This document shows positions 3,109-37,948 of a stretch of DNA of 64,000 nucleotides, in pieces. The DNA is from a virus. The DNA lies in the IMG/VR virus record IMGVR_UViG_3300017593_000402, positions 32,001-96,000 of that record; one strand, written 5' to 3'. Every line of letters starts with the position of its first letter. The first letter of the stretch is position 1. The position numbers and the translations under genes were made by a program. The notes under the pieces were generated by a model that was not told the origin of the DNA, did not search any database, and saw only the letters and a list, made by a program, of their open reading frames with translations.

Positions 3109-3110
3109 CT

Positions 3111-5152: not shown

Positions 5153-5163
5153 GAGGAAAGAGT

Positions 5164-20242: not shown

Positions 20243-20820
20243 CCAATCTCGTTGGCTTTCATTACAGACAGCGTGTTTACACGGTTCGTCGGTATACCAC
20301 TTGTGTTACAGTGGAGTTATCTTGCAAAAGAGGAGTTCCTACTGCTTTGAACATTTCGCAAATACATCCTGAAGCTACGTTGCGATTGACCTGGTTAGGA
20401 GATACACCGAGCGTGTTGTGCACGTTAGTCGGGGCCTCTGTAACTGAAACTCTTACTTTAACTAAGTTTAGCGCGTCTCTTACGTCAAATAAGTTTCCTG
20501 GGCTGGAGTACGTTACGTGTACTCAGGATGGTTCCCTTTCGATTTATACCACCGAAGAAGTTGGTCTTGACATAGGACAAGTCACCGGCGCGGTTTATAC
20601 TACTAGAAGGGCTATAGGAACGGATGAGTTTGGTCGTGTTACGTTAGTCTCTTCGAGTGTAATGGTGTGTTTACCCGGAGTTGAAATTCGCTCTGACGAT
20701 GTACTGATTGACCAAGAAACGAACGAGACTTTTTCTGTAGTAGAGGCACAGCAAGCTTTTGATCGAAGAGGTAGATTGCATCATTGGGAACTTGATGTTG
20801 TACGGATAAGAGAACGATGA
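20239..20820 (+). CDS. Putative head closure protein
   Basis: Position in the neck cluster; C-terminal EIRSDDVL...LHHWELDV. Confidence 0.5.
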   Translation: MTNLVGFHYRQRVYTVRRYTTCVTVELSCKRGVPTALNISQIHPEATLRLTWLGDTPSVLCTLVGASVTETLTLTKFSASLTSNKFPGLEYVTCTQDGSLSIYTTEEVGLDIGQVTGAVYTTRRAIGTDEFGRVTLVSSSVMVCLPGVEIRSDDVLIDQETNETFSVVEAQQAFDRRGRLHHWELDVVRIRER

Positions 20821-21194
20821 GACTGTTAATTCGATTACCTTCTGTTTCGAAGATTTACGATGACCTTGAGAGAAGGAAGCAAAAGTCCATCGATGTGATA
20901 TTTGAGGAGGTTATTCGACTCGTTAGTGGTGAACCTCTTTCTAACGAGGAGTTACGCAGACGAGGACATCCTTACTCAAGGCGACGTCCTACTAACTTGT
21001 CCCCTTTGGTTCATATTCGTACTGGACGTTTAAAGGCTTCGATTCGTAAGAATCGCGACGGAATTGCTTTTGACACTGGTAAAGCACCCCATCTAAAATA
21101 TGTGACTAAAGGTACAAGGCGGATGATCCCTCGAGACTTTATTGCGGCTGCTCTCCAAAGGGCTTCAGATCGATTGAGGGAGATTTGGGAGTAG
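20817..21194 (+). CDS. HK97 gp10-like tail completion protein
   Basis: RTGRLKASI and GTRRMIPRDFI motifs. Confidence 0.7.
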   Translation: MRLLIRLPSVSKIYDDLERRKQKSIDVIFEEVIRLVSGEPLSNEELRRRGHPYSRRRPTNLSPLVHIRTGRLKASIRKNRDGIAFDTGKAPHLKYVTKGTRRMIPRDFIAAALQRASDRLREIWE

Positions 21195-21200
21195 GATAGT

Positions 21201-21629
21201 ATGATTTATTTGCACGAAGTTCAGTCGGATTTGAGTAGTAAGATTGAGTCCGTTTTGACGGATTTGGATCAAACGTATAATTTGGGGTTGATTAGAGCTC
21301 CGGTGATAGTTTCCTCCTTACCAGAGGATCGCGTTACTCCTTCTACTTACTTGAAAATGGAAGAGGTTTCAAGTCAAGAGAAGGTTTTCTTTCGGTGTAC
21401 TGGAACGTTACTCGTTGAGTTATCTTTTGAGATAGGTGAAGATGTGGCTTCGAGCCTGATCCGGAAGTTAGGTAATAAGTTGCAAGATCAATTGGAGCGA
21501 AGAAATAATACTACCCATACCTACTATTCAGGTAGTGTTAAAAGAGTCACGTGGTCTCTTCCTAAGGAAGAGATGGTTAGAACAATTAAAGTTGAGTTCG
21601 AGGTACAAGGCATTGAGCAACCAATCTAG
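21201..21629 (+). CDS. Putative tail terminator
   Basis: 142 aa; lies between the gp10-like gene and the tail tube. Confidence 0.5.
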   Translation: MIYLHEVQSDLSSKIESVLTDLDQTYNLGLIRAPVIVSSLPEDRVTPSTYLKMEEVSSQEKVFFRCTGTLLVELSFEIGEDVASSLIRKLGNKLQDQLERRNNTTHTYYSGSVKRVTWSLPKEEMVRTIKVEFEVQGIEQPI

Positions 21630-21849
21630 TGCTTGGAAGTGCTCAAGTTGTGGGGCCGTCCTAGGTTACCTGGATGGTACAGACATCTTGCGTATCAAGT
21701 ATAAGGACTTATACTTTTACGTAAATGTTATAAGAGGAGCTTCGTTGATAAAGTGTTTGTGTCGTAAGTGTGGTAAAGTTAATGAAGTTATGGCGAAAGC
21801 GATGAAGATGAGTGAACCTGCTGTGATCGAACTGGAGAAGTACTTGTAG
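21613..21849 (+). CDS. Small zinc-ribbon protein (Mu Com-like)
   Basis: WKCSSCGAVLG...CLCRKCGKVN; start uncertain (TTG 21613 or the ORF-track 21535). Confidence 0.6.
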   Translation: MSNQSSAWKCSSCGAVLGYLDGTDILRIKYKDLYFYVNVIRGASLIKCLCRKCGKVNEVMAKAMKMSEPAVIELEKYL

Positions 21850-21900
21850 TGAGTTAGGTTGTTGAGGTACACACTTAATTTGAGGAGGTGAGAATTGTAA

Positions 21901-21945
21901 ATGAACACACCAACTTATAACACCAAAAGATTGAGTTTCGGGCCT
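21901..21945 (+). CDS. Major tail tube protein, exon 1 (MNTPTYNTKRLSFGP)
   Basis: Strong RBS GAGGAGGTG; in-frame TGA just after unless spliced; joining to 23135 gives ...LSFGPGVLYIG... Confidence 0.85.
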
Positions 21946-23134
21946 AAGTGACACTGGGCCCGTAAAACCTCTGCTGATCAACGGGGAAACACAATGGTAT
22001 CCACTCAGCTAAATGAGATTTTAGATGGATTAATTTTCAGTGATGGGCATATTGCTTATTGTAAGGCTGGTGACTATAGGTTCGAGTTGGGGACGACCAA
22101 GCGTTTGTACGCAGAGCAAGTTTGTAACCTTCTTCGTCCTGTTATTTCCTGTTCTATTAGAGAACAAGTACGTATTGGATTTGGGAAGAAATTTATCTCT
22201 TACAGAGTTGTTGGATATAAAGCTCCTGTTATGAAGAATCTTCACTATCGTTGGTATGATGATAAAAAGAAAAAGCTTCCCAAAGATTTTAGATGGACGC
22301 CTACTACTTTGAACGTTGCTTATTGTGGTGATGGTACTGTTATTGAGAATAGCCCGACTATGTGCTTAAATAGTTGGGCGGTTCCCGAGGTGAAAGAGAT
22401 AGTTAGGTGCTTTGAAGAGTTGGGCTTGTATGGGACGGTTGTCCAAACCCCAACAGGACCGATTTTTAGGTTACATCAAGATTGTGCCCTAGATTTCTTC
22501 GAGTACATAGGAGACCCACTAATTCCGTTTCACTCTTATAAGTGGATTACCGTTGTCAACCCCCAGCAAGCAGTTCGCGCGACTCTGTGGGACGATGACC
22601 TAGCTCAAAAGGTTGCGAGGTGTATTAAGAAGATTATGATTTTACGCGTTTGGGGAGGTTCGAAGGAACGGCGGTACTTGTCGTACTTTCCTGAGTTAGT
22701 CGTAATGGTTAATGATAAAGACGTTAAAGATGCCCTTCAGAGAATCAGAACTTCAAGGAAGAAAGGTGAGGTTGTAGTTAGAGGTCGACAAGCGAAACGT
22801 GTTTTAGAAAGGGTCCATTTGTTTCTTCCGGACGATAAACGAATGTTAGCTACAATTGCGTTAGCTTTGCCTCTTGGGCGGAGGAAGAAAGATTTGAAGG
22901 AAGTTCTATATCAGTTTTTCTGGACGAAATTTAATGAATTAAATCCGCCCGAGAGAAGACGGGGACCCAAAAGAGAGTTGAATAGCGAACTGCGGCTGCA
23001 GAGACTGAGCGTAGAGGACACTAACCTCTTTCAGGATCTGGTTAGTGTATACGACAGTCCGACCCCTACGGTGACGTAGGGAAGTAGTTGTACTACTTGC
23101 CCGAAAGGGTCAAGAAAAATAACAGGTTAAAGCG
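21946..23134 (+). mobile_element. Group I self-splicing intron in the tail tube gene
   Basis: P1 GGGCCU/GGGCCC with U.G at the 5' splice site; P10 ACACU/GGUGU; P3 21968-74/23011-17; P5 21991-22005/22541-56; P6a 22570-78/22985-93; P7 GACUG/CAGUC; P8 23018-26/23040-48; P9 with GUGA loop; terminal G 23134. Confidence 0.92.
21994..23079 (+). CDS. Intron-encoded LAGLIDADG homing endonuclease (double motif) fused to a second degenerate LAGLIDADG-like domain
   Basis: ILDGLIFSDGHI and LNVAYCGDGT motifs, domain end IPFHSYKW; C-part VVRGRQAKRVLERVHLFLPDDKR..A.IAL. Confidence 0.85.
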   Translation: MVSTQLNEILDGLIFSDGHIAYCKAGDYRFELGTTKRLYAEQVCNLLRPVISCSIREQVRIGFGKKFISYRVVGYKAPVMKNLHYRWYDDKKKKLPKDFRWTPTTLNVAYCGDGTVIENSPTMCLNSWAVPEVKEIVRCFEELGLYGTVVQTPTGPIFRLHQDCALDFFEYIGDPLIPFHSYKWITVVNPQQAVRATLWDDDLAQKVARCIKKIMILRVWGGSKERRYLSYFPELVVMVNDKDVKDALQRIRTSRKKGEVVVRGRQAKRVLERVHLFLPDDKRMLATIALALPLGRRKKDLKEVLYQFFWTKFNELNPPERRRGPKRELNSELRLQRLSVEDTNLFQDLVSVYDSPTPTVT

Positions 23135-23638
23135 GGTGTGCTTTATATTGGAAGCGCCGGCCAAACACCTACTATTGATATAGGCGCTGTTAAGACTGGA
23201 GCAACTCTAACATTTACTCGAGATAAACTCGAGGTTAAACAGGGTTCTCCCGAGAAGTTGATCAAACAGTGGGTTGTTACTGAGACAGTTAAACTAGATG
23301 TTGTTGGTCATGAATGGAATCTTGAGAATTTGAGGTATGCTATTGGTTGTGGTATCATTCAAACTTCGGGAAATGAGAAGACGATGGATTTCGGCGGAGA
23401 TATGGAAGTTACTGAAGCGTCGCTGAAGTTCGTTCACCAGATGCCTGCTGGAGGAACTGTGGAAATTGATATTTGGAGAGCTCAGTCCGCAGGAGAACTC
23501 TCGATCGAGTTTGGGAACGATCCACACGAATTCCCTTACTCGTTCGTTGCTCTGGATGCCGATACTGCTTGGGATGGCACTACCTTGGATGAGAGGGGAA
23601 GGTTGTGCCGAATTAGGTTAATCGGTGACTTCTCCTAA
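23135..23638 (+). CDS. Major tail tube protein, exon 2 (spliced product 182 aa)
   Basis: GVLYIG...IDIGAVKTGATLTF...EIDIWRAQ..GELSIEF...FPYSFVAL; precedes chaperones and tape measure; no good RBS of its own. Confidence 0.85.
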   Translation, partial: GVLYIGSAGQTPTIDIGAVKTGATLTFTRDKLEVKQGSPEKLIKQWVVTETVKLDVVGHEWNLENLRYAIGCGIIQTSGNEKTMDFGGDMEVTEASLKFVHQMPAGGTVEIDIWRAQSAGELSIEFGNDPHEFPYSFVALDADTAWDGTTLDERGRLCRIRLIGDFS

Positions 23639-23691
23639 TTTTAGGTTAACTTAGTTAGTACAATTTAGACGCCCCAGGAGGTGCATTTATT

Positions 23692-24090
23692 ATGAAAGCT
23701 TTTGAAGAGTACATTGAAGGAGCTCGTGAAGTTACCTTAAGCAATGGGAACACGGTTGAGATTCCTCCGCTTACTTGGGGGAAGGAACTTAGGCTCTACA
23801 ACATTCTAACTAAGGTCTTTTCTAAGCTTTCCGTTAGTACTGATGCAGAAGGCAATCCTCAGTTCGATGAGTCCCAAGTCTACGCGTTCATGACCGCCTT
23901 TGCTAATGACGTGTCTGAGATTGCATCGATTATTTTCAACAAAGACAAGAAGTGGGTTGAAAATAATCTGACCTCAAAGGATATGGTAGAGTTTATCGTC
24001 CCTTTGTCGCTTCACATTTTCGGAAAGCTAAATCTCGGACTAACCAACGCGGTAACGAAGTTGGCAGAAGAGGCGGGGGAGACCCCATAG
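23692..24090 (+). CDS. Tail assembly chaperone (G-like)
   Basis: Between tail tube and tape measure; RBS AGGAGG. Confidence 0.75.
   Translation: MKAFEEYIEGAREVTLSNGNTVEIPPLTWGKELRLYNILTKVFSKLSVSTDAEGNPQFDESQVYAFMTAFANDVSEIASIIFNKDKKWVENNLTSKDMVEFIVPLSLHIFGKLNLGLTNAVTKLAEEAGETP
24075..24081 (+). promoter_or_regulatory. Putative -1 programmed frameshift site GGGGGAG
   Basis: G GGG GAG just before the stop; the -1 frame is open into the 24120-24353 ORF. Confidence 0.65.
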
Positions 24091-24353
24091 AGAAGACCAT
24101 AGCGCAGGTAGTCGACTTCTTGTGCTCTCAGTATGGATGGACTCCTGACCAGGTTTTCGCCTTGACAAGGCCCACGATTGAGGGTTTACTAGAAGAAGCG
24201 AGAGAACGACTCCACGCTCAGTATCGTTTCTATGCTTCTCTAGTAGGCGCAGAACTTCGTGATGATTACGTTCGGCCAGATAGTGATGATCCACGTACCT
24301 TGTTGAAGAAAGTGCGAGATATTGGAGTCGATTTTGAGGTGGTTGGTGGGTAA
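24078..24353 (+). CDS. Tail assembly chaperone frameshift extension (T-like)
   Basis: GDPIEKTIAQVVDFLCSQYGWTPDQVFALT; YGWT is typical of such extensions. Confidence 0.7.
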   Translation, partial: GDPIEKTIAQVVDFLCSQYGWTPDQVFALTRPTIEGLLEEARERLHAQYRFYASLVGAELRDDYVRPDSDDPRTLLKKVRDIGVDFEVVGG

Positions 24354-24358
24354 AGAAT

Positions 24359-27300
24359 ATGGCCGAAGAGTATATAGTAGAAATAGGTGTTGAGAATAAG
24401 GAGGAGTTAGAAAAACTCCGTACCCAAGTCGCGAAAACCGCTGAGTCTGTCCAAACCCTTTCTGAAACTGTACGTAAGCTCGCTGAAAGTCAACGACAAT
24501 TAGTTGAGTCGATTCGTAATACCGCCCGGAGTACCCAAGCTTCTGTTAAGTCCACCCAAAGTGCTTCGAAGGCCACTTCACAGTACGCCTCCTCTGTTCT
24601 CACGTTAAGGACTGCGTTTATTGCTATTGCCTCTGCAGCTGGGTTGGTAACTGCAGCGATTAACTCTAAAAAGATCTCGATGAGCTTAGCGAATAAGTTG
24701 TACGTACTTTATACGCGCTCAGCCCAAAGCGCTGCTCGAGCAGTCACCTCATTTGCAGTACAGCATCGCTTCCTTGGTACCGTTTTGACGCAAACCGTTC
24801 ATATACTTTCCACTACAACTTCTGCTTGGATTACTTGGGCAAAAGGATCAATCCCTGCTACTGCCGCAATGAAACAGTCTTTAAATTCTGTGCGAGATGC
24901 GCTCAGAGTGTTGTTCACCGAGTTTCGCAGGGGACCTTTTACTTGGATAGCTTCTCAGTTTACGCACGTTGCAGAAGTTGGTAAGTCTGCGTTCGTTTCT
25001 ATTGCTGTTTATGCTGTAAGGGCAGCTACTAGGTTAGTTGAGTTCTTGACTCCTGCTGTTGCTACGGTAACGCGCTTGTTTTTGAAGTTGAGCGATTCTC
25101 TTACTCCAGTAAGGGAAGCTCTTTCTCGTCTGTTTGTTAGACTGAGAATTCCAGACGCCTTTACTAAGCTAACCGAAGTTTTTACCAGGCTTAAAGTGAT
25201 AATCGTTGATGTCGCGGATGTTATCTCTACTAAGTTTGTGTCTGGACTTCGTGTCGTAGCCGACCTCTGGAAAGGCTTACTCCGACTTGCTTATTCCCTA
25301 CGTGATCGTGTAGCCCAGATCGGGAGTGTGGTGAAGTCTAAGTTAGCCGGCAAGATAGGACTGACCGCTAGTTTTGCGTTTTTAGGTACTGTATTGGATA
25401 AGGTGCGAGACAAGATCTTGCAGCTCGGGGCTCGTATTAACGAATCCCTAGGTGGTGAGGCCGTTTCTATAGGCGCGAAGTTATCTAAACCTTTTGTGGC
25501 GATGATGGGGAGTTTGACCATTCTTTCCGGGAAACTGTTGCGTTTCTTTCCCTTGACTAAGAAGTTAGGCTCTACACTAACTACGTTGGGGTACTCCCTC
25601 GCTTCTGTGTCCTCGTTTTCGCGGTCGTGGTCTATGGTAATGTCCCATTTGGATAAGACATTACCTGGAGTCAACGACCGATTACGCAGAGTTACTCGCG
25701 GTTTCTCAGAGTTGACCGGTAAGATTAACATACAAACGGCCGCGCTTCCTAGATTGATCAAGGCACTTGGGGAAGTCACCTTTCACTACCTTATGATATT
25801 CAAGTTTAATGTTAGTCTAGCTCACGGATTCGAGCTCTTGGGTGAGAAGCTCTCTTACTTTGGTGAAGCCATGCTCGAGCACTTCTCCGAATCGTATAGA
25901 GTCAGTTCTGAGATGATTCGCACGCAGGTTGATTTGAACCGAGCGGTTCGGAGGTATGCTGAGTTGACCGGCGATGCTTCTATGAGTGCAAAAGATTGGC
26001 TCCAGTGGTCCGACAGACTTGCTCTTTCTGCAGGTAAAAACGTTTCAGAGATGCGCCGGGTTACCGGTGCTCTGTTGGATTTTGCGGCTTTGTATAAGTT
26101 GAACCAAAAGGAGACGAAGCGATTCATTTCTTTGATGACAGACGTTTCGAGTTTCTTGGGCAAAGATGTGTTCGAGACCTTGCAACATGTCCACGGTGCG
26201 TTGGCTGGGTTAACTAATTCAGCCATGATTTTGGGCATTAACATAGACCACCTCAGAGAGAAGACTAAGTTTTACGAAGAACAACTCCGGAAAGAAGGCA
26301 CCGAAACTGGAAAGTCCGTCAAACAAAAAGCGAGGATGCTCGCTCTTATACAGGAGTTGAGTTACTTACAGGGTGTTAACAATAGGTTGATGGAAACAGG
26401 GTATGGTATTCTGAGACGTTATCGCGTTTCTCAAGAACTTCTCGCGGCCCAAACTGGAAATTATGTAACTCCTATTTTGAATGCTTATTACAAAATTTTG
26501 ACCCGAATTAACGAGGTCATGGCTCAGCCCGGGATTGGAGGTTTTATCACTACGATGAAGGCCGCTGGTGCCGCCTCACTTGATTTGCTAGGACGTTTTG
26601 TAAAACTCGGAGCGCAGTTGTTTGTATTGATTGAGACTGTACATTTAGTTGAAAAGGCGTTAACAGCACTAAACGCAGCCTTTGACGTCTTTGGGATGAC
26701 TCAGAGAACAGCTCTTGCTCCTCTATTCGTGATGAGAGATGGTATGGTCAAAACTAGTTTTACTGCCTCGTCACTAAGCAAAGTTCTCAAGAGGTTAAGC
26801 GTTTACATTGGTACTACCTTTGTAAACTTCTTCAAAAACGGTGCCAAGGCTGTTAAAGGCCTTGTTGTAGAGTTAAGAACTGCGATCTCCACATTAATGG
26901 CGACTAAAGTTCCCAAGGCCATTTTTGGCCCAGCTCTAGCATCTGCTATGGTTCCAGAAAGGGGTGTGATTAGGAAAGCTCTGGCTGCTAGTAAGTTGAT
27001 GCAAGCGACTTTTATGGCCGAAGGGTTGGTGCTGGCGAAGAAGGTAACTCCTATGGTACAGAAGCACGCTAAACAGGTTCGAGATTTGTACTTAATTACT
27101 CATGACGTCGCCGGAGCTCAACGGGAGTGGGCTAATACCATAATTACGTTTACTGGGGCGGCCGGGGGTTTGTCTAAAGTATGGTACACTTTCTTAGGTG
27201 TCGTTACAAAAGTTAAAGGTGCCGTGTTAAAACTCATTAACATATTCAAAGGCTTTGCCAAGATTTTTGGGATTATTTTGATCGTCATTCCCGCGGTGTA

Positions 27301-30300
27301 TAAAGCCTTCAAAGAAGCGCTTATCCCGGCTTTTAAGGAAACTTTTGGGGAGTCCGAAACTTTTCGGGCCGCGGTTTCTGCACTAGGGAAAGTTTTGGGT
27401 TGGTTAGGAAAAATCATTGTACAGATTGTTACTGGCCCCGTTAAGCTGTTTGCGACGGGAATCGCTGGGACTGCAGGTGTTATTTCGTATGCACTGGGAT
27501 TGATTATTAAGTACAGGGGCGTTCTTCTCCGCTTAACAGGACCTTTCTATTTACTCGGGAAGTCCGTCTTTAATGTGGGGAAGTGGTTCGGTATTTGGGG
27601 TAAGTCTGTTGACTCCTTGAACAAGAAACTTGACAGTGCTGGCGAGACTTTGATCAAGTTTGGAGAACGGTCTGCAGATAATGCTCGAGCTATAATTGGG
27701 CTGAACAAGGTACTACAGACTAACATCGATCGTACTGCGCGGTTGCGAAAGGAACTTGCTGAAGGAATGAAGAGACGACAAGAGGAACTGGGACTGAACC
27801 TTTCGTCTGCTAAGTCGTTGGAGCGAGTTGTTAACGCTATTCAGGAGTATCGAGATGCCTACCAAGAGTTCCTCGAAGTTCAAGATGAGATTGAGAAAGG
27901 TAGGACGACTGAGGGTAAGCAGTTAGAAGATGCAGAGGCTTTACATAGGAGAAGTACCGAAGCGGTTCAGGAGCTTTCGAAGGCGCGTTCCGCTCTTGCA
28001 GAGAATTTGAAGAAGCAGTTTGAAATTACAGGAGCCCAGATTAAGGAAACTAAAACGTTGGTAAGTTTGTACTCAAAGTACACTAAAGCTATTGGCGACG
28101 TTTCGACTGGACAAGTAGTTACTCTCAAAACTGGGCAAGCTATTTCACGGATTTGGCAAGGCTTAAATCAGATTACACAGGGAAACTTAAGTGGGATTAA
28201 GACAACCGCAGAAGCGTACAACTCGTTAGCAGGTATACTTCGTGATATGGCCTCTAAAGCTAGCCCTTCACTACGGGCCGCGTTGGTAGCAGAAGCTAAG
28301 TCTTATGAGAAGCAAGCTGGTATACTAACTAAGGTAATGGAGAGGACCAAAGGGAAGGTCAAAATTGATGAAAAATTAATCGAGACTTCCTTCAAAGTCT
28401 CCGCTGCCCAACGTGCTGTGAATGACGAATTACAAAGGCACCAAGCAATTTTGACTTACTTACATAAATCGATTTCCGATACAACTGAGGGACTGGGTCA
28501 GTTCGCGAATGTGTATTCTAAAGATGTAACAGTCTCGGCCGAAACTGCCGCCCGTGTACAGCTCGCTTTAGCGAAGATCTCCGAAGTAGGTGCTCGTCGC
28601 TACGAAGAAGCTATCAATGGTAATATAGACTCTCTTAAAGTGTACCGGAACTATCTTGAAACAATTCAGAAGTCCCAGAACGACGAATTTGCCACTCTTG
28701 TTAAGGACGCAAAGGGGAGACAGCTCCTGAATGCTTACTTGGAAGCACAGATTCGAACCGTTGATAACTTGATAAAGTCTTATGAGAGTGAGTCTCAAGT
28801 TCATGTAACTTTATCGGCTCGTATAAAAGCACGACTCGCTACTTTGAAGGCGCAGAATAAGGTAACAACGGAAACTCTGAAGCTTCGGAAACTTCTACTT
28901 GACCTTTGGAAGTCTGAGTTTAACCTCCATTCTCGGTTAAACGCCCTTACGTTACAGGGGTTGACTACAAGAGAAAAGAGAGCCCAAGCAGAACAGTATC
29001 TTAGCGAGGCTTTACAACAAAGTATCGAGCAGTATAGCAGAGCAGGACTTTCTCTCAAAGCCTTTGATGATTACGAGAAAGGGGCTATTTCAACTACTAC
29101 AGCCGTTAGACAGGCTCTGGTGCAATTACAAGGTCGTACCGACTTGTTAAGTAGGGCTATTAAGGAAACCCTCTTAGAAGCTCTGTCTCGTGCTACATCT
29201 CAACAGCGTGAGTATGCGGCTATGACGATCCAAAGTGCGAGGCGGATTAAAGAACTCGAGAAAGTAATTCACCCTGTTTATACTACTTTTGGGAATTACT
29301 CGAATCTGATCGCTGATTTGGTTAATCGTTCTCGTGACCTAGCAAAGCAGACAGGGATTTCGGCCCTCGCCTTTGATTCCTCTACGGTTACTGTGAGTGA
29401 ACTGGCTTCTTATCTCGCCCTTTTAAGCGCACATCAAGTTGATTACAACAATGTTTCAAAAGAGACCGCTCAAGAAGTTACCTCTCTAGTTGAGAAGTTA
29501 CTCGAGCTGACCAGAGTTGATGTCCCCCAATGGGGGTCAAGCTTAGCTAATGTATTTGAGAGCTTACAAGGGAAGACTAAGGATTTCATTTCAGCGAATG
29601 ATTACCTCAAACCCGCTCTCCTGAACGCTATCTTTGGATTTAGGGGGTTGGTTGACAGAGTCCGTGAGCTTGATGCTAACCTCGCTCCTGTTATACAAAG
29701 CGTGTTAGACAGCGCTTCGGCGATGTATGAAGCTAAGAGTTCTTCTTCGGCTTATAGTGAGGGGTTGAGTAAAATCACGAGTTTGGAAGAGCAAGTACGT
29801 ACCGCCCTTAGTAGCGTACTCCCTCATTTAAACGCGCAAGTTCAGGCTTTAGCTAAAGGGAAAGTGCAAACTGCTGACATGATCGCGAAGACTCAAGATT
29901 ATGCTAGGATCGTTTCAATACTGGTTTCCCAGTTAAACACATTGACTGATGCTGAGGAACGTTTGCGAGAAAGCCGCCGTAAGAATTTGGAGTTGAGTTC
30001 CTCTTTGGTATTTTCCACTCAGCAACTTCATGAGAATGTGTCCGAGCTCGCTAACATTGCTGTACAAGATCTGATTCAACAGTACCGACGAGCGGGTGTG
30101 GTACTGAGTGAATCGCAGAAACAAGCACTGGAGGACATAACAAGGACTATTACAGGTTACACAGAGTTAACTGAGTTGGCTCGTAGACGAGTTGATACTT
30201 TTACGAAGTTCGTGGACGCTAAGCTGGCCGAACAAACACGCGCTTGGTCGCGCAATAAGGATGAAGTTGAAGCTTTTGCTAATGGCTTGAGGACTATTGG

Positions 30301-30976
30301 CGAGAGTGCAATGCAAGGAATCTTGAAGAACTATGCTGAGATTGGGGCGAAGATCGAGGAAATGGGCGGGTTCTTTGGCGCCCTCGGACAAATGACTCAA
30401 GAGGCTGTTGCGAGGACCGCTGCGAGCGCGTTTGATGAGTTGAACAGGGCAATAATTGATTCTATAGTATACGGAAAGCGATTTCAGATGAACTGGCAGG
30501 AAATTTTGAGAAGCTTTACGGCAGGTCTTGCTCAGGCAATGCTACAGTTGTTAGAATTTAAACTAGCTATGATGGCGCTGCAGGCGATGGGAATTCGAGT
30601 TCCTATGATGAGACGTGGGGGTTTGGTTCCTTTAAGGAGGCAGGCCGGCGGCCCGGTACCTGGGCAAGGACGTGGAGATAGCGTCCCCGCTTTACTAGAA
30701 CCAGGAGAATATGTTGTTCCAAGGCCTGTGGTAGAAAAAATAGGAGTTTCGTTCTTTGACGCGCTACGTAAAGGTGTTGTACCTCCGACGATAACACCTT
30801 TTCATTACCAAGCGGGAGGCTTGGTTACGCCGATGCAACAACAAACGCAGGAACCGAAGGTAACGGTTGTGACTATTTTCGATGAGAAGGAGCTTAATAA
30901 GTATTATAGCTCTCCCACTTATGGCAGGGTTGTTGCGAACAATGTAGGTGAGAGAATCGCGAGGAGGACTAGCTAA
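24359..30976 (+). CDS. Tape measure protein (2205 aa)
   Basis: Long helical Ala/Leu-rich protein; C-terminal GGPVPGQGRGDSVPALLEPGEYVV. Confidence 0.92.
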   Translation: MAEEYIVEIGVENKEELEKLRTQVAKTAESVQTLSETVRKLAESQRQLVESIRNTARSTQASVKSTQSASKATSQYASSVLTLRTAFIAIASAAGLVTAAINSKKISMSLANKLYVLYTRSAQSAARAVTSFAVQHRFLGTVLTQTVHILSTTTSAWITWAKGSIPATAAMKQSLNSVRDALRVLFTEFRRGPFTWIASQFTHVAEVGKSAFVSIAVYAVRAATRLVEFLTPAVATVTRLFLKLSDSLTPVREALSRLFVRLRIPDAFTKLTEVFTRLKVIIVDVADVISTKFVSGLRVVADLWKGLLRLAYSLRDRVAQIGSVVKSKLAGKIGLTASFAFLGTVLDKVRDKILQLGARINESLGGEAVSIGAKLSKPFVAMMGSLTILSGKLLRFFPLTKKLGSTLTTLGYSLASVSSFSRSWSMVMSHLDKTLPGVNDRLRRVTRGFSELTGKINIQTAALPRLIKALGEVTFHYLMIFKFNVSLAHGFELLGEKLSYFGEAMLEHFSESYRVSSEMIRTQVDLNRAVRRYAELTGDASMSAKDWLQWSDRLALSAGKNVSEMRRVTGALLDFAALYKLNQKETKRFISLMTDVSSFLGKDVFETLQHVHGALAGLTNSAMILGINIDHLREKTKFYEEQLRKEGTETGKSVKQKARMLALIQELSYLQGVNNRLMETGYGILRRYRVSQELLAAQTGNYVTPILNAYYKILTRINEVMAQPGIGGFITTMKAAGAASLDLLGRFVKLGAQLFVLIETVHLVEKALTALNAAFDVFGMTQRTALAPLFVMRDGMVKTSFTASSLSKVLKRLSVYIGTTFVNFFKNGAKAVKGLVVELRTAISTLMATKVPKAIFGPALASAMVPERGVIRKALAASKLMQATFMAEGLVLAKKVTPMVQKHAKQVRDLYLITHDVAGAQREWANTIITFTGAAGGLSKVWYTFLGVVTKVKGAVLKLINIFKGFAKIFGIILIVIPAVYKAFKEALIPAFKETFGESETFRAAVSALGKVLGWLGKIIVQIVTGPVKLFATGIAGTAGVISYALGLIIKYRGVLLRLTGPFYLLGKSVFNVGKWFGIWGKSVDSLNKKLDSAGETLIKFGERSADNARAIIGLNKVLQTNIDRTARLRKELAEGMKRRQEELGLNLSSAKSLERVVNAIQEYRDAYQEFLEVQDEIEKGRTTEGKQLEDAEALHRRSTEAVQELSKARSALAENLKKQFEITGAQIKETKTLVSLYSKYTKAIGDVSTGQVVTLKTGQAISRIWQGLNQITQGNLSGIKTTAEAYNSLAGILRDMASKASPSLRAALVAEAKSYEKQAGILTKVMERTKGKVKIDEKLIETSFKVSAAQRAVNDELQRHQAILTYLHKSISDTTEGLGQFANVYSKDVTVSAETAARVQLALAKISEVGARRYEEAINGNIDSLKVYRNYLETIQKSQNDEFATLVKDAKGRQLLNAYLEAQIRTVDNLIKSYESESQVHVTLSARIKARLATLKAQNKVTTETLKLRKLLLDLWKSEFNLHSRLNALTLQGLTTREKRAQAEQYLSEALQQSIEQYSRAGLSLKAFDDYEKGAISTTTAVRQALVQLQGRTDLLSRAIKETLLEALSRATSQQREYAAMTIQSARRIKELEKVIHPVYTTFGNYSNLIADLVNRSRDLAKQTGISALAFDSSTVTVSELASYLALLSAHQVDYNNVSKETAQEVTSLVEKLLELTRVDVPQWGSSLANVFESLQGKTKDFISANDYLKPALLNAIFGFRGLVDRVRELDANLAPVIQSVLDSASAMYEAKSSSSAYSEGLSKITSLEEQVRTALSSVLPHLNAQVQALAKGKVQTADMIAKTQDYARIVSILVSQLNTLTDAEERLRESRRKNLELSSSLVFSTQQLHENVSELANIAVQDLIQQYRRAGVVLSESQKQALEDITRTITGYTELTELARRRVDTFTKFVDAKLAEQTRAWSRNKDEVEAFANGLRTIGESAMQGILKNYAEIGAKIEEMGGFFGALGQMTQEAVARTAASAFDELNRAIIDSIVYGKRFQMNWQEILRSFTAGLAQAMLQLLEFKLAMMALQAMGIRVPMMRRGGLVPLRRQAGGPVPGQGRGDSVPALLEPGEYVVPRPVVEKIGVSFFDALRKGVVPPTITPFHYQAGGLVTPMQQQTQEPKVTVVTIFDEKELNKYYSSPTYGRVVANNVGERIARRTS

Positions 30977-33955: not shown

Positions 33956-36900
33956 ATGGGCTGGCTCCCAGAATATTCACACAGAATCAGGTTCAAGATT
34001 GATCATGCAAAGATTGACTCTGATCTTACTCACTTCCCTATTACCCTCTTCTTGACTGAAGATAATGCTGATGCAGTCTTTAATGAACTGGGTTCTAACT
34101 ATAAGAAGATTGCAGTTACTTCTGATGATGGTACTACTCAACTTTATGTAGAAGTTGAAGTATGGGACTCAGCGAATAAACAGGCAGTTCTCCATATTTC
34201 TAGGTCGTCTTGGACTATTTCGTCATCTTCAGATACTTATTTTTATCTTTACTACGACGCGTCTGTTGCAGACAACACAACTTACGTTGGAGATCCTGGA
34301 GATTCTGTTGCTGCAAATGTTTGGGATGACAACTTTAAAGCGGTTTACCATTTATCTCAAAATCCCACAGGAGGCAATGGATGTATTAAAGATAGCACCA
34401 GCAACAATAATGACGGTACTCCTCATGGAAGTATGACTTCAGATGATTTAGTTGATGGGGGGGTAGGAAAGGCTCTGGACTTCGACGGAAGTGACGACTA
34501 TGTGGATTGTGGGAGCGACGGCAGCTTGGATATTACTGGTCCTCTTACAATAGAGTCAGTTGTGAAGTTATCTTCTACAGGCGGGAGTCAAGCTTTTTTT
34601 GAAGGGCGTCTGCAATATACATTGTGGGTGAATTCAAGTGGTAGAGTACGCCTTGCAGACACGCAAGGTAACTACTGTGATTCAGATTCTGGTGATTTTG
34701 CCTGGGATGTTTATCAGTACGTAGCTGGCAAGTTTTCGGGTTCTTCTGGAGACTCTATTACCACGTCCAATGCTGCTGTTTTTATAAACGACGCTAATGT
34801 AACAGCAGCTACGGGAGGTACGTGGTTGCCACAGTCTCTTTCTACTGCTGTAATTGCGTGTTCTCCTCAAGCTACGCCCATCTCTTTTGCAGATGGTTTG
34901 ATAGACGAAGTAAGAATTTCCAACGTGGCTCGTTCCGATGCTTGGATCAAGGCGACTTATTATTCTTTATTTAATAGTTTGATAACTGTTTGTGAGCATG
35001 TAACGGCGTGGAGTTATAGAAAGAAAATTACTATTTCTGGTTCTCCAGGAGCCGGAACAGGTTATCAAGTCCTTTTAAAAGTAGGAGAAAGTTCTGGAGC
35101 TAGTAACTGTGATTTCCATGTTGAAGGGCATTCTGCCAAGTTCCCTTCAGGAACCAATGATTCAGGAGACCTTCGTTTTGTAGATAACGATGGTTCTACT
35201 TTTTTAAACTTCTGGGTTGAGAAGGTAGAAGGTGAGGCACCCAATAGAGTAGCTTATTGTTGGGTTAAGATAAACGACAACTTAGATTCGGATGTGAATA
35301 TTTACTGTTATTATGGCAACCCTGGGACAGGTAATGTAAGCAACGGGAAAAATACGTTTGAGTTCTTTGACGATTTTAGCATTGACTCACTTTCAAACTA
35401 TGATCTGATTTCGGTGTTTCACTTCGGCGACGGTACTGATGATAAAACAGCAGGAACTTATGATGTAGTTAATCAGAGAGTAAACATTAACACTGGTGAT
35501 AACCTTGAAACGGTTTATTCCCCGAAAAATTTTACCATCAGAAATTTTCATGCCCAGGCTAAGTTTCTTGTTTCAGGAGGCTACCCGTATGGTGCTACGG
35601 GTACTGTAGTAGGACGGTATCAAGATGACAACAATATGTACACAGGCCAAAAGGCAGCACAACAGTATAGTGAGACTGGGGGGACAGGTTCTTATTGTAG
35701 TTATACATCACCAATAATACGTAAGTGGGTTGCTAGTACCGAGAGTGACATTGCTACACCCCCGTCAAATAATTACATTCCAATGAATACTGAAACTATA
35801 CTAGCTCTAGCAATATATGAAAACAATATAAAATTCTTTGTTGACGGTTCAGAGGTTTTATCGACTACAGACTCTGATTTATCTGATGCAGGCAGGGTGG
35901 CATTTGGAGCGGGTCAGTGGGAGGGCTGGCTGGATGAGATCAGAGTCCGTAAATATGTGTCTCCCGAACCTTCTTTCTCTACTGCAGGAGACGAAGAGCA
36001 ACTTGTCGGCCCTACCTGGTATCAGGCTATTTCTTGTATTCGAAATCGCCTTTACGAGATTGCCTACAATTCTAAACATTACCTTACTTCTACCTTTTAT
36101 ATGTTCTTTAGAATTTGGGGAGGTGATATTACTAAAGTCAAGAACAAAGTATTTGCTGATGCGTTAACTTTAATAGCCAACCAAGTTCGATCCTATCAGC
36201 TCGTGGTCCCTCATTTGATTCAACATTGGGACGGCCCTGAAGGTGATTACCGGCTCGTTCCTCCTTCTACTCGCGAACGTCCATGGTGGTGGTGGCCTTA
36301 TTCTTGCGGTGAACCCGTATCTAAAGGGCAGGAGGGTATTAACTATTCACGTATTTCGAAGGATCGTCGTTACGACACGTTTTTCTCCCCCCAACGGTAT
36401 TATTGGGGTGTAATAGTAGGGACACCGTACTCACGAACTCCCTCATCTTACGCAGGTAAAACAATTGAGGACAAACCAAAGAATTTCTTCTGGAACAGAG
36501 TTTACGTTGTCCCTACAAAAATTGATTTCGGATTTACTAAGGTAGGTTCGTCTCGGTTAATTCACATTTTACATCGTTATGAAGACACCTCTCACGATTT
36601 ACAATCTGTTTCTTCTTCGGATCCTACGTTTTCGGTAACTCTTCCTGAGCCTTTGCCTCACACTATGGCTCCCGGGGCTGAGATGGACGGTCTTGTGAAT
36701 GTGGCACAGGTGGGGGCAGTGAGAGTAGTAGACGCGCCCATCTACTTCCATTTTGATACAGTAGGAGACGCCATTTGTTATGTTTCTGCTACGTTCGCTA
36801 TAGTCCTCTTGAAACCGAGAAAGTATGATCAATGGAATACACCTCATACTTTTCAGAAGATAAAGTTCAAGTTCGAAACAGAATTGGTTCACAACTTAGC

Positions 36901-37948
36901 AAGCAAGCCCACCCGTATTCCTAAACTTTATTACCCTACCCGCTCGTCTTCGTTGCACTTGGGAGCTGTTGATGAGGTTGCATATGATCTTGATTATGAT
37001 GCTATCAATGCGGCTCGTTATTTAGTAGTAGTGCCTGAGTTTCCTCTTAGAGTACGATTAGTGAGCAACGCGCACCAACATGATACCCAGATAGTGGTAG
37101 AAGATGTCACAGACTTTGAGGTAGGGTATTCTGCTGTTTTGTGTAGCTCGCGTCATTTAGAAGCGGGCCAGATCACCGAAATTGACGCAGCCTCGAAAAC
37201 ACTTAAGTTTGCTGGCCAGCTTCAGTATGATTATGATGTGAACGATACCTGGGTGTACCCCAGTTTTACGGGGTACGGCCACGTGCGACGGACTCGTTCT
37301 TTAGTGAAACATAATGTTTACAACCTTGAGATTGACGTAGATGAAATAATCCCTGAGGGCTGTAACGCATTGACAGGTACTACTTCGCAGTGGTACAAAC
37401 GGCCAAGAACGGTGCTTGTTGAAGGGTCTGTAGTTGATAGTAGGGATGTTAAGGGTCTTGAAGTTGGCGTCCCGTCCATTAAAAATCCTTTGAGCTCTCG
37501 TCTGCGTGATAAAATTGTTGTAACGCATAGTTACCAGTTCTTTGGAACTGCTTGGAGGGATTTCAAAGACTTGTTTTTATACGCAAAAGGGCGCTATCAG
37601 AAAGTCAATATAATCACTTGGTTGAGTGAATTACGCGTTTACGAAGACGCTTATCAAGGTTCTGCTTCGCTAAAGATCATACCTCGGACTTACTCTGAGA
37701 TTTGGAGTGCTTACAAGAAGGTGGTGATTGATTATGGATCTACTATAGTTCACACGACCGTTACGGGCGTAGTTACTGCTGAGGATCATTGTGTAGTTAC
37801 CCTTCAAGATAATTTGTCGTTAGACACACCGAAGGGTACCCCACTCCACTTTAAGATTGACGCTTACTTAACAGAGGATACCATCGAGTTTGATTTCAAG
37901 GGCGATGGCTGTTTCGTAACTGTTACTTGGGAGGAAGCGTATGACTAA
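33956..37948 (+). CDS. Large tail protein: two DUF2341 domains with LamG/ConA-like lectin domains, fused to a distal-tail-like C-half
   Basis: IDSDLTHFP, ALDFDGSDDYV, GLIDEVRISNVARSDAWIKA, GDLRFVDNDG, IYCYYGNP, FEFFDDF; C-terminal FLYAKGRY. Confidence 0.7.
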   Translation: MGWLPEYSHRIRFKIDHAKIDSDLTHFPITLFLTEDNADAVFNELGSNYKKIAVTSDDGTTQLYVEVEVWDSANKQAVLHISRSSWTISSSSDTYFYLYYDASVADNTTYVGDPGDSVAANVWDDNFKAVYHLSQNPTGGNGCIKDSTSNNNDGTPHGSMTSDDLVDGGVGKALDFDGSDDYVDCGSDGSLDITGPLTIESVVKLSSTGGSQAFFEGRLQYTLWVNSSGRVRLADTQGNYCDSDSGDFAWDVYQYVAGKFSGSSGDSITTSNAAVFINDANVTAATGGTWLPQSLSTAVIACSPQATPISFADGLIDEVRISNVARSDAWIKATYYSLFNSLITVCEHVTAWSYRKKITISGSPGAGTGYQVLLKVGESSGASNCDFHVEGHSAKFPSGTNDSGDLRFVDNDGSTFLNFWVEKVEGEAPNRVAYCWVKINDNLDSDVNIYCYYGNPGTGNVSNGKNTFEFFDDFSIDSLSNYDLISVFHFGDGTDDKTAGTYDVVNQRVNINTGDNLETVYSPKNFTIRNFHAQAKFLVSGGYPYGATGTVVGRYQDDNNMYTGQKAAQQYSETGGTGSYCSYTSPIIRKWVASTESDIATPPSNNYIPMNTETILALAIYENNIKFFVDGSEVLSTTDSDLSDAGRVAFGAGQWEGWLDEIRVRKYVSPEPSFSTAGDEEQLVGPTWYQAISCIRNRLYEIAYNSKHYLTSTFYMFFRIWGGDITKVKNKVFADALTLIANQVRSYQLVVPHLIQHWDGPEGDYRLVPPSTRERPWWWWPYSCGEPVSKGQEGINYSRISKDRRYDTFFSPQRYYWGVIVGTPYSRTPSSYAGKTIEDKPKNFFWNRVYVVPTKIDFGFTKVGSSRLIHILHRYEDTSHDLQSVSSSDPTFSVTLPEPLPHTMAPGAEMDGLVNVAQVGAVRVVDAPIYFHFDTVGDAICYVSATFAIVLLKPRKYDQWNTPHTFQKIKFKFETELVHNLASKPTRIPKLYYPTRSSSLHLGAVDEVAYDLDYDAINAARYLVVVPEFPLRVRLVSNAHQHDTQIVVEDVTDFEVGYSAVLCSSRHLEAGQITEIDAASKTLKFAGQLQYDYDVNDTWVYPSFTGYGHVRRTRSLVKHNVYNLEIDVDEIIPEGCNALTGTTSQWYKRPRTVLVEGSVVDSRDVKGLEVGVPSIKNPLSSRLRDKIVVTHSYQFFGTAWRDFKDLFLYAKGRYQKVNIITWLSELRVYEDAYQGSASLKIIPRTYSEIWSAYKKVVIDYGSTIVHTTVTGVVTAEDHCVVTLQDNLSLDTPKGTPLHFKIDAYLTEDTIEFDFKGDGCFVTVTWEEAYD

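Follow-up and report, generated by a model that had tools for sequence, protein, structure and literature searches.

Probable mobile group I intron in a long-tailed phage: a split major tail-tube gene and a reading frame that runs through the ribozyme core

Introduction

The locus described here raises the question of whether the gene for a major virion protein is carried in two pieces, and if so what kind of element divides it. Positions are those of the window, the whole 64-kb stretch of DNA analysed, which comes from a 137-kb phage record. A first-pass annotation had proposed that a tail-tube gene is split by a group I intron with a LAGLIDADG reading frame, leaving a hidden first exon, and the data discussed below bear this out. 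In our best explanation, the major tail-tube gene of this long-tailed phage is very probably interrupted, at 21946-23134, by a mobile group I intron. A very abundant virion protein would then need RNA splicing, in phages from runs labelled hydrothermal vent, while current knowledge of the group I intron mechanism is unchanged by the finding.

The split gene and its product

This is the major tail-tube gene of the phage, and it is interrupted after codon 15 by a 1.2-kb insert. Its parts are:

21882..21891, + strand: ribosome-binding site, GAGGAGGTGA, 9 nt 5' of ATG 21901, read directly from the sequence
21901..21945, + strand: exon 1, 15 codons, MNTPTYNTKRLSFGP, with 3' end GGGCCU (DNA GGGCCT)
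21946..23134, + strand: probable group I intron, 1189 nt, starting directly 3' of U21945 and ending with terminal G23134
23135..23638, + strand: exon 2, 167 codons plus stop, beginning GVLYIGSAG

In the unspliced reading exon 1 is followed by AAG and then TGA (21946-21951), so that translation would end at codon two of the intron, as the first-pass annotation had it. The predicted spliced product has 182 aa and reads MNTPTYNTKRLSFGP|GVLYIGSAG across the junction. The FGP|G junction is contiguous in 22 of the 23 IMG/VR tail-tube loci, and intron-less relatives have MNTPTYTTKRLSFGPGVLYIG unbroken; the intron-less FGPGxLY homologues that had been suggested as a check thus exist. Nor do homologues naturally start at VLYIG, which had been put forward as an argument against splicing: 45 of 55 proteins are 177-187 aa long, and the mode is 181-184 aa as compared with the 182 predicted. 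The intron-less protein P0003 (MNTPTYTTKRLSFGPGVLYIGAAG) is continuous across the junction, straight into exon 2. Exon 1 is identical to the N-terminus of P0003/L002 in 14 of 15 residues, whereas the overall identity of P0003 to the window protein is just 75%, and in the N-terminal arm residues N, P, S, F, G and P are invariant or almost so in 26 homologues.

Exon 1 closes with GGGCCT in all four intron-bearing alleles but in none of the 19 intron-less loci listed, which fits selection for P1 pairing or co-conversion. Public gene calls miss exon 1 and start exon 2 at GTG 23138, giving a protein of 166 aa (P0001, on 10 contigs). The real tail-tube product is most likely the 182-aa form, which starts 1.2 kb upstream of the catalogue start. 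The 166-aa entry would thus be an annotation error, and tiny first exons such as this one are systematically overlooked.

We identify the gene as that for the tail tube because the Phage_TTP_17 matches, the Foldseek matches of a structural model and the gene order agree, so that fold, profile match and gene position all point the same way. Pfam PF25681 (Phage_TTP_17) matches 5 of 16 family members, with a best E of 8.3e-7; used on its own, the window's exon-2 protein gave no match to it. There is a PDB profile match to 9n71_B ‘Tail tube’ (E 0.043). An AlphaFold model of an intron-less homologue has a pLDDT of 86.5, and Foldseek with that model gives tail-tube proteins on top (9n71_A at E 4.5e-9; 27 matches with E<=1e-3). 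Residues 1-15 of the model have no regular structure and a block mean pLDDT of 63. The tail-tube gene is followed downstream by a chaperone-like ORF (phrog_1442) and by one of 2205 aa, which we take from its size and position to be the tape measure gene.

Ribozyme helices

The boundaries of the intron are fixed by the contiguous homologues and by the P1 and P10 pairings. The helices are (all on the + strand):

21940..21961, + strand: P1 hairpin, GGGCCU 21940-45 with guide GGGCCC 21956-61; U21945.G21956 at the 5' splice site
21949-51, + strand: in-frame stop TGA inside the P1 hairpin
21951-55 with 23135-39, + strand: P10, ACACU of the P1 loop with GGUGU of exon 2, from the pair table
21968..21974 with 23011-23017, + strand: P3, CCUCUGC with GUAGAGG, 7 pairs in 4/4 introns
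21983..21986 with 22560-22563, + strand: P4, GGGG with CCCC; also the Shine-Dalgarno-like GGGGA of the intron ORF
21991..22005 with 22541-22556, + strand: P5, 15 bp with one bulged U; closes the 535-nt L5 and holds the ORF AUG 21994-96
22541..22578, + strand: P5' 22541-56, J5/4 CAA, P4' 22560-63 and the P6 5' strands (22564-67 outer, 22570-78 inner)
22985..22998, + strand: P6 3' strands, 22985-93 GCGAACUGC (inner, 9 bp) and 22995-98 GCUG (outer, 4 bp), closing the 406-nt L6
23001..23007, + strand: P7 5' strand, G23001, bulged A23002 and GACUG 23003-07
within 23001..23060, + strand: P3' 23011-17; P8 hairpin 23018-26/23040-48; J8/7 AUACGA; P7' 23055-60
23064-70 with 23075-81, + strand: P9, GUGA loop; ORF stop TAG 23077-79 in its 3' strand
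23082-88 with 23092-98, + strand: P9.1
23099-102 with 23107-110, + strand: P9.2, GAAA loop

P1, P10, P3, P4, P5, outer and inner P6, P7, P8 and P9 consist entirely of Watson-Crick or G.U pairs. The assignment to group I follows from P1 with its U.G, the terminal G with P10, the P3-P8 order with the P3/P7 pseudoknot, and the bulged P7. The position of the guanosine-binding pair is occupied by G23003-C23059, which by that position would bind guanosine. P4' directly abuts P6 without a spacer, and J6/7 has 2 nt. R/S-type motifs (CUGCAGAGACUG and GACAGUCCG) are present in 4/4 introns. Some dimensions are atypical. P4 has just 4 bp, and J3/4 has 8 nt (UGAUCAAN), which is longer than usual; this J3/4 is conserved in the four introns at this site and in a second intron of the relative L025. 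The 4-bp P4 was absent from the helix list of the first-pass annotation. An alternative P4 (CAACGG 21979-84 with CCGUUG 22550-55) was rejected: it would compete with P5 and put an 8-nt gap between P4' and P6, and L025 has nothing equivalent.

Three relatives (L025, L026 and L027) have homologous introns at the identical codon boundary, with every helix kept through compensatory changes. The comparison was made with a pair table of the four introns, as the MAFFT alignment misplaces inner pairs of P5, P6 and P8. The covariation stands for few independent lineages, since there are three relatives only and the L026 and L027 contigs are closely related. All 6 pairs of P1 are present in 4/4 introns. 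P10 is paired at 5/5 positions in the window, 8/8 in L025 and 5/5 in L027, with sequences that differ and track each exon 2 (ACACU/GGUGU, AACACUCU/GGGGUGUU and GCCCU/GGGGU). At one P3 position the window has U-A where the three relatives have C-G (CCUCCGC/GCGGAGG), and P4 of the relatives is GGGG/UCCU or GGGG/CCCU. P5 has 14 bp of different sequence in L025 and L026, with several positions changed on both strands; in L027 it has 5 bp with a 15-nt loop, and the nuclease domain is absent. A C-G pair of outer P6 in the window is G-C in L025 and L026, and inner P6 has three different sequences, one per lineage, all fully paired. The P7 strands GACUG/CAGUC are identical in 4/4 introns. P8 is paired in all four; it has 9 bp in the window, and in the relatives 6 bp whose sequence is unrelated. 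P9 shows an A-U to G-C change. Three introns extend as far as L9, and in each the loop is GNRA (GUGA, GUGA, GCAA). The helices listed in the first-pass annotation (P1 with U.G, P10, P3, P5, P6/P6a, P7, P8 and P9), together with the terminal G, are thus fully paired and covary in three introns. In L027 the in-frame junction gives A and not G as the last intron base, and there are four Gs where L025 has five; this relative at least is atypical, defective or mis-assembled.

Detection by Rfam and folding

A covariance-model search had been suggested as a check. The gathering threshold of Rfam RF00028 (Intron_gpI) is 50 bits, a detection threshold and not a structural criterion, and the best score on the intron is 13.4 bits (E 0.34), for a 5'-truncated match when 231 nt were given. 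The partial alignment (22930-23081) nevertheless places P7, P3', P8, J8/7, P7' and P9 exactly as assigned by hand, including the R and S positions. At E<=10 there was no RF00028 match on 21850-23250 (1401 nt) or 22557-23140 (584 nt), at E<=1 none on L027 1700-2829, the stretch with the homologous intron, and no Rfam family, group II included, reaches gathering in the window. In the whole 137-kb record the sole RF00028 match at E<=1 is one of 19 bits on the minus strand (window positions 34190-34439), enclosed by a plus-strand ORF of 1330 aa; 8 of 14 control genomes also give a match in this search, and we therefore take it as chance. Two large loops filled by the ORF, together with a divergent P4-P6 region, probably account for the low score on the intron. 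This looks like a blind spot in detection: similar introns of metagenomic phages are probably under-counted, and the four aligned introns could seed a better model.

Folding agrees with the assignment. The 3' domain folds with z -3.36 (0/200 shuffles as good), and its MFE fold recovers the helices of the P7/P3'/P8/P9 region. For the P4/P5 region z is -2.43 (0/100 shuffles as good), the MFE and centroid folds of 21978-22568 retain P4 and P5, and the compact P4-P5 of L027 folds as predicted.

The intron reading frame

21994..23079, + strand: intron ORF, 361 aa, with its start in P5 and its stop inside P9

Residues 2-185 are a LAGLIDADG endonuclease domain encoded in L5, and residues ~186-330 have a second LAGLIDADG-like fold encoded in L6. 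The enzyme type proposed earlier is confirmed by PF03161 (LAGLIDADG_2), at 45.9 bits (cut-off 25) and E 7.7e-12 over residues 8-157, and by phrog_11023, at E 3.5e-20 over residues 2-185. The linker is encoded by P5', P4' and P6 (the translation of 22541..22578 is ..WITVVNPQQAVRA..), and the tail by P6', P7, P3', P8, P7' and P9. ORF and ribozyme overlap over most of the core, and this stretch therefore serves both as coding sequence and as RNA structure. P0057 is a full-length homologue (46% identical), and a motif conserved in P0057 and P0058, LQRLSxE..DSPxPxVT, is the translation of P7/P3'/P7'/P9.

For the C-terminal half, Foldseek with an AlphaFold model finds I-MsoI/I-CreI. The matches of the L6 domain are modest (best E 4.3e-4, TM about 0.45, with a model from 6 sequences). 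The fold is alpha-beta-beta-alpha-beta-beta-alpha, and by eye there is no evident acidic LAGLIDADG motif. L027 retains the frame of the L6 domain, with 189 codons open and about 46% identity to that of the window. No second copy of the intron ORF was found in its own genome, IMG/VR scans with the exon-2 protein alone, the intron ORF or the ORF alignment found no relative, and a DNA search of an annotated phage collection with 21000-25000 gave no match.

Proposed mechanism and alternatives

Self-splicing, nuclease activity, homing and any maturase role are inferred from the sequence, and we suggest the following course. The guide GGGCCC (21956-61) would pair with GGGCCU, the last six bases of exon 1, to form P1, in which the U.G wobble marks the point of cleavage. 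Attack after U21945 would come from an external guanosine bound at G23003-C23059 in P7, and ACACU in the P1 loop would then hold GGUGU, the start of exon 2, as P10. Terminal G23134 would then enter the guanosine site and the exons would be joined, to give the 182-aa tail-tube protein MNTPTYNTKRLSFGP-GVLYIG... On unspliced RNA the TGA two codons into the intron would halt ribosomes before they unfold the core. With GGGGA in P4 and AUG in P5, the folded ribozyme should also hide the start of the intron ORF. The L5-encoded nuclease would presumably cut intron-less alleles at FGP|GxLY and so lead to homing; the DNA of this presumed target varies at synonymous positions among intron-less loci. The L6-encoded domain may bind DNA or aid RNA folding. 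In four DNA runs no contig was found that joins the exons across the intron, and the runs with the window's phage are labelled as hydrothermal vent metagenomes. A look for RNA reads over the junction found no run recorded as RNA among those with the phage.

The alternative to be taken most seriously is that the element is derived from a group I intron but no longer splices unaided, the intron protein or a host factor acting as maturase, with the L6 domain as candidate. We think this unlikely, though with a chance that should be kept in mind. It would accord with the short P4 and low Rfam scores, with the vent label on the runs, with an L6 domain that has a LAGLIDADG fold but no acidic motif by eye, and with L027, which has lost the L5 nuclease domain yet keeps the L6 frame open. 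However that ORF has perhaps simply not decayed yet, the structural matches of the L6 domain are modest as given above, and with the canonical helices all present and GNRA loops in place the core may fold unaided.

It is far less probable that there is no splicing at all, and that a homing-endonuclease cassette has left exon 1 as a relic with the tail tube translated from GTG 23138. That codon is in frame, the 166-aa form is catalogued, the first 15 residues are unstructured and of lower confidence in the model of the intron-less homologue, and a co-occurring allele with an HNH intron seems to lack N-terminal codons too. But GTG 23138 has no Shine-Dalgarno sequence at a usable distance and a strong one precedes ATG 21901; exon 1 is intact and much better matched to P0003 than the protein as a whole; the residues of the N-terminal arm are near-invariant; and P1 and P10 pair and covary with both exon edges, which a non-splicing cassette would have no reason to retain. 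Since inteins, archaeal introns and some group II introns can likewise carry LAGLIDADG enzymes, one could think of an element of one of these kinds (for the archaeal case, a bulge-helix-bulge intron), to which we give almost no credence. An intein is contradicted by an insert that is out of frame with exon 1 and has TGA after two codons. As for group II, PMC3706429 has among its references one family with LAGLIDADG ORFs, but the window has no Rfam match to group II at gathering. All helices seen belong to the group I set, the 5' splice site has a U.G and the intron a terminal G, and a group I intron remains our preferred reading.

Relation to known introns

In classical phage introns the ORF generally sits in one peripheral loop, whereas that of the window fills both L5 and L6, and its translation crosses P5', P4', P6 and P6'-P9. 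The window intron also differs from the classical ones in having a LAGLIDADG enzyme and a tail-tube host gene. The classical cases include T4 td, nrdB and nrdD, the SPO1 DNA polymerase gene and those of staphylococcal phages (PMC3984707, PMC3706429). They are described as self-splicing ribozymes in conserved protein genes, with an in-frame stop soon 3' of the 5' splice site and mobility through an intron-encoded homing endonuclease; the window intron has the same kind of stop and, as predicted above, would share the splicing and homing. The examples given in the introduction of PMC3706429 are mostly in genes for nucleotide metabolism, DNA polymerase, helicase and lysis.

The first-pass annotation had regarded a LAGLIDADG intron in a structural gene as unusual, and this overstated its rarity. 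In the literature, Cluster J mycobacteriophages already provide spliced group I introns in tail genes and in a capsid gene, the latter with a LAGLIDADG ORF, and the window intron adds a member. As with the introns of LittleE (capsid) and BAKA and Optimus (tail) reported by Pope et al. 2013 (PMC3706429), the host genes are highly expressed siphovirus structural genes, exon 1 ends in U, the intron ends in G, and recognition came from intron-less relatives. Splicing of those introns is reported as shown by RT-PCR, and that of the window intron is predicted. The LittleE intron also has a LAGLIDADG-type ORF, given as 177 aa and on the opposite strand, whereas that of the window is on the sense strand, has 361 aa and runs through the ribozyme core. 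For BAKA, the intron is described as 265 bp with no ORF; the gene that it splits is called a tail gene, and the product, a known structural protein, is not the major tail subunit. The DNA search of the phage collection with 21000-25000 found no sequence relationship to the LittleE, BAKA or Optimus introns.

The 23S rRNA group I intron of Thermotoga encodes a LAGLIDADG protein described as having maturase-like activity (PMC3984707). It resembles the window intron in being of bacterial type with a LAGLIDADG ORF, in its hot environment and in a possible folding aid from the protein. The resemblance is one of general features; the host gene is rRNA in the one and a phage structural gene in the other, and a maturase role in the window is hypothetical.

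Other introns in the tail-tube family

The tail-tube gene family is a hot spot for introns: two sites are seen in it, and there may be up to two more. An allele with an HNH intron (L003 type) is present in the same samples as the LAGLIDADG-type intron. RF00028 scores 25.6 and 23.8 bits (E 2.3e-4 and 8.1e-4) on this sister intron. The 16 codons missing from L003 (SFGPGVLYIGxAGxTP) were not found in its three forward frames, and of every combination of U(-1) and terminal G that was tried, none is in frame. TAG as a sense codon in this allele was considered and dropped because in the window both the upstream gene and the intron ORF end with TAG; a -1 frameshift was also set aside, with no slippery site seen by eye.

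A more far-reaching reading, which we hold to be quite improbable, is that introns compete within the tail-tube family and that the intron protein is now part of the ribozyme design, an L5 nuclease and a heat-stable L6 maturase being carried on one frame through the core, while the HNH allele spreads selfishly. The L6 module would then be retained in L027 because it is a maturase, and tail assembly would depend on a protein-assisted ribozyme. The HNH allele would have removed codons 12-15 of exon 1, the LAGLIDADG-type intron and the next 12 codons, and its canonical splicing would leave the tail-tube gene out of frame. The co-occurring alleles could serve as a natural system for the study of intron competition and homing in uncultured phages. 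One relative in the family has an internal exon of 12 codons.

The split tail-tube gene

Comparison with related sequences indicates that the split of the major tail-tube gene is real and that its edges are exact. ATG 21901 is preceded by GAGGAGGTGA, as read in the sequence, and opens an exon 1 of 15 codons (21901-21945), MNTPTYNTKRLSFGP; if there is no splicing a TGA is reached two codons further on. The frame encoding the remainder of the protein is open from 23123 and reads GVLYIGSAG... from 23135, the start of exon 2 (23135-23638), and the spliced product would have the junction peptide LSFGPGVLYIGSAGQTPTIDIGAVK.

The first-pass annotation had proposed this hidden first exon and pointed to intron-less homologs for comparison, and these bear it out. 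P0003, the closest full-length homolog and itself intron-less (75% identical), has the N-terminus MNTPTYTTKRLSFGPGVLYIGAAG, and in 22 of the 23 IMG/VR loci with relatives the DNA is uninterrupted through ..[FLIA]G[PQN]G.., the exception being L003. The predicted length of 182 aa (15 + 167) fits the homologs: 45 of the 55 proteins matched by the 167-aa exon-2 query have 177-187 aa. Across 26 homologs the residues S, F, G, P and G around the junction show no or almost no variation, and the insert is thus located where the gene is most conserved, which is also where homing elements are usually found.

With regard to function, profile matches and predicted structure indicate that the gene encodes the tail tube, as had been proposed. 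Pfam Phage_TTP_17 matches 5 of 16 family members (best E 8.3e-7), with no match for the window's exon-2 protein alone, and among solved structures the family profile weakly matches chain 9n71_B, labelled 'Tail tube' (E 0.043). For the AlphaFold model of P0003 (pLDDT 86.5) solved tail-tube proteins rank first in Foldseek (9n71_A, E 4.5e-9; 27 matches at E<=1e-3). Residues 1-15, which correspond to exon 1, are predicted to be an unstructured arm, and the first predicted strand, residues 16-22, begins exactly at the splice junction.

Group I structure of the insert

From structure and comparison only, we infer that the insert (21946-23134, 1189 nt) is very probably a splicing group I intron that joins 21945 to 23135. 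This is in keeping with the first-pass annotation, and the full helix set can be paired here and in homologous introns. The helices were assigned by hand and then script-checked.

Elements of the intron (plus strand)
21940-45 / 21956-61: P1, with U.G at the splice site
21951-55 / 23135-39: P10, P1 loop paired with exon 2
21968-74 / 23011-17: P3
21983-86 / 22560-63: P4, 4 bp
21991-22005 / 22541-56: P5, 15 bp with one bulge
22564-67 and 22570-78 / 22985-93 and 22995-98: P6, outer and inner
J6/7: CA, 2 nt
23001, 23003-07 / 23055-60: P7, A23002 bulged
23018-26 / 23040-48: P8
J8/7: AUACGA
23064-70 / 23075-81: P9, loop GUGA
23082-88 / 23092-98: P9.1
23099-102 / 23107-110: P9.2, loop GAAA
23134: terminal G

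P3 and P7 form a pseudoknot, as usual, and P4' directly adjoins P6. The 3' domain alone folds into P7, P8, P9, P9.1 and P9.2 (z -3.36; as good in 0 of 200 shuffles), and for 21978-22568 the MFE and centroid structures both retain P4 and P5, closing a 535-nt loop (z -2.43).

Searches with the group I covariance model, a check that the first-pass annotation had named, tell against this reading. The Rfam group I model RF00028 had no match at its gathering threshold (50 bits) within the 64-kb window, none at E<=10 on stretches of 1401 nt or 584 nt from this region, and none at E<=1 over the part of L027 containing the homologous intron. On 231 nt there was a 5'-truncated match of 13.4 bits (E 0.34), the best obtained and below threshold; its alignment places P7, P3', P8, J8/7, P7' and P9 as by hand, and is consistent but weak. 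Among sequencing runs recorded as RNA, none contains the phage.

Some other Rfam matches were seen. Across the whole 137-kb record RF00028 matches at E<=1 at a single site (19 bits, E 1e-3), on the minus strand at 34190-34439 and antisense inside a 1330-aa ORF (33956-37948); this match is probably due to chance, since the same search also matches in 8 of 14 control genomes. Bacilli-1 RNA gives a weak match at 23064-23121, over P9, P9.1 and P9.2 (18.6 bits, gathering 55.6, E 0.05-0.3), and LOOT RNA a similarly weak one (22 bits) in L027, over the P5-P6 region of its HNH-type intron.

Homologous introns

Scanning of JGI metagenome contigs with the intron-ORF alignment gave three loci, L025, L026 and L027, all of them syntenic tail-tube regions in which an intron interrupts the same codon boundary, ..FGP|G.. 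The L025 intron is at 2952-4091, the L026 contig ends within P9, and in L027 this is the first of two introns, beginning at 1744. The helices are fully paired throughout the three despite differing sequence. P3 is CCUCUGC/GUAGAGG in the window and CCUCCGC/GCGGAGG in the relatives; P5, 15 bp in the window, has 14 bp of other sequence in L025 and L026 and in L027 consists of 5 bp closing a 15-nt loop. Outer P6 is CAGC/GCUG in the window as against CAGG/CCUG, and inner P6 has three distinct sequences among the introns compared. P8 is ACACUAACC/GGUUAGUGU in the window, with GCCCGA/UCGGGU and GCCCAC/GUGGGU in the others, and P9 is CCCUACG/CGUAGGG, with CCUGCG/CGCAGG and CCUCGUG/CACGAGG in the others and always a GNRA loop. 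P10 tracks exon 2 (ACACU/GGUGU, AACACUCU/GGGGUGUU and GCCCU/GGGGU), and the P7 strands do not differ among the four introns.

The last six bases of exon 1 are GGGCCT, a perfect match to the guide, in 4 of 4 intron-bearing alleles and in 0 of 19 intron-less loci (excluding L010, L016 and L017, which are duplicates of L009 and L015), where there are other synonymous codons. Few introns are available for comparison, and two of them, L026 and L027, are from closely related contigs, but wholly different helix sequences at fixed positions would be hard to explain in another way.

The intron ORF

21994-23079, plus strand: intron ORF, 361 aa

Over residues 2-185 the protein has matches to LAGLIDADG profiles (PF03161, E 7.7e-12; phrog_11023, E 3.5e-20), as expected from the first-pass description of the intron, and two motifs, LDGLIFSDGHI and LNVAYCGDGTV, can be recognised there by eye. 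The LAGLIDADG part fills L5, the AUG falling within P5 (5' strand) and GGGGA within P4. The frame runs onward through P5', J5/4, P4' and P6 as WITVVNPQQAVRA, then fills the 406-nt L6 and crosses P6', P7, P3', P8 and P7' to a TAG stop inside P9.

Alignment indicates that the C-terminal half is genuinely coding: six sequences align over it, and P0057, the homolog from L025, is 46% identical to the intron ORF over its full length. The peptide LQRLSxE...DSPxPxVT, conserved in homologs, is a mere translation of the ribozyme R and S elements. An AlphaFold model of the C-terminal half (pLDDT 71.8, residues 12-139 confident) has the predicted topology alpha-beta-beta-alpha-beta-beta-alpha, and in Foldseek it is matched best by I-MsoI and I-CreI (E 4.3e-4 to 2e-2), which suggests a further LAGLIDADG-like fold, one without an obvious acidic motif. 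In L027 the L5 nuclease domain is absent and the L6 domain is still an open frame, which prompts the rival and less likely hypothesis that the L6 domain acts as a maturase and aids splicing. Maturase-like activity of a Thermotoga LAGLIDADG protein is mentioned in PMC3984707.

Other introns and alleles of the gene family

These loci show that introns are concentrated in the tail-tube gene family, although some details do not fit. In L027 (1744-2829) the gene has two introns around a 12-codon internal exon, GVLYLGPVGSTP (2343-2378). The first is of the window's type without the L5 LAGLIDADG domain, and its in-frame end is A2342, not G, there being four Gs as against five in L025; the second begins after ..ACGCCU and is of an HNH-bearing type. 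The L003 intron is of this HNH type, with an ORF matching HNH_3 (E 6.2e-11), and scores 25.6 and 23.8 bits against RF00028. L025 also has a second intron (4272-5312), LAGLIDADG-bearing and after ..RGLE, with a similar core, the same GGGCCC guide, a P2 hairpin and no P9. It has the 4-nt repeat GAGU at both ends, and for this reason an in-frame junction cannot have U(-1) together with a terminal G. The homologs P0007 and P0010 are called from MKQGSPE, at about codon 48, which hints at either a further intron site or truncated gene calls.

The HNH-type allele shares samples with the window's allele. In sequencing runs X1, X4 and X5, which contain the window's phage, some contigs depart from the window at 21926 and rejoin it at 23171-23174, with an L003-type intron in place of 21927-23170. 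This form is minor in X1 (depth 6 vs 16-17) and X4 (6-9 vs 22) and is the only one seen in X5 (depth 30-33). Another locus, L031, has the same 5' junction; the allele is at 12508-12668 there and at 3305-4000 in L003. Judged by its sequence the allele seems broken: it is without 16 codons (SFGPGVLYIGxAGxTP), reads ..KRLN-stop after codon 11, and splicing at U(-1) and a terminal G would shift the frame between its exons. The odd alleles (HNH-type, second intron of L025 and first intron of L027) are possibly assembly errors, or defective selfish alleles maintained by co-infection; it is also possible that a shortened protein is made from a GTG formed at the intron end, or that the choice of splice site is unusual. 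They do not affect the window's intron, which is canonical and in frame.

The window's insert very probably belongs to a kind already known, mobile group I introns within structural genes of phages. PMC3706429 reports spliced group I introns, by RT-PCR, in the capsid gene of phage LittleE, where a LAGLIDADG-type ORF lies on the opposite strand, and in BAKA and Optimus tail genes, and cites an intron in the capsid gene of lactococcal phage Tuc2009; PMC4599081 notes one in the terminase gene of Bacillus phage Silence. Among the papers listed on group I introns and tail tube or major tail protein, no title or abstract opening describes one in the tail-tube gene itself, which is no proof of absence. 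The uncommon details are the 15-codon first exon, the ORF that spans two loops and runs through the core, the low detectability by Rfam and the multi-intron, multi-allele gene family.

Gene neighbourhood

The source record, of which the window is bases 32001-96000, is a 137,043-bp IMG/VR virus rated complete by CheckV, and the runs containing the phage carry the label hydrothermal vent metagenome. By gene calls and profile searches the genes near the split gene are all on the plus strand, in the order customary in long-tailed phage.

20817-21194, plus: neck or tail-completion-like ORF (phrog_5)
21201-21629, plus: tail-terminator-like ORF (weak)
21535-21849, plus: small Cys-rich ORF, just upstream of the tail-tube gene
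23692-24090, plus: tail-assembly-chaperone-like ORF (phrog_1442, E 1.3e-5)
24359-30976, plus: 2205-aa ORF in the tape-measure position

The Cys-rich ORF, whose sequence includes ..WKCSSCGAVLGYLDGTDILRIKYKDLYFYV..CRKCGKVN.., overlaps the end of the preceding ORF, and the same place is kept in L003, L025, L026 and L027. Two ORFs, at 23692-24090 and at 24120-24353, separate the tail-tube gene from the 2205-aa ORF, the customary place of a frameshifted chaperone pair.
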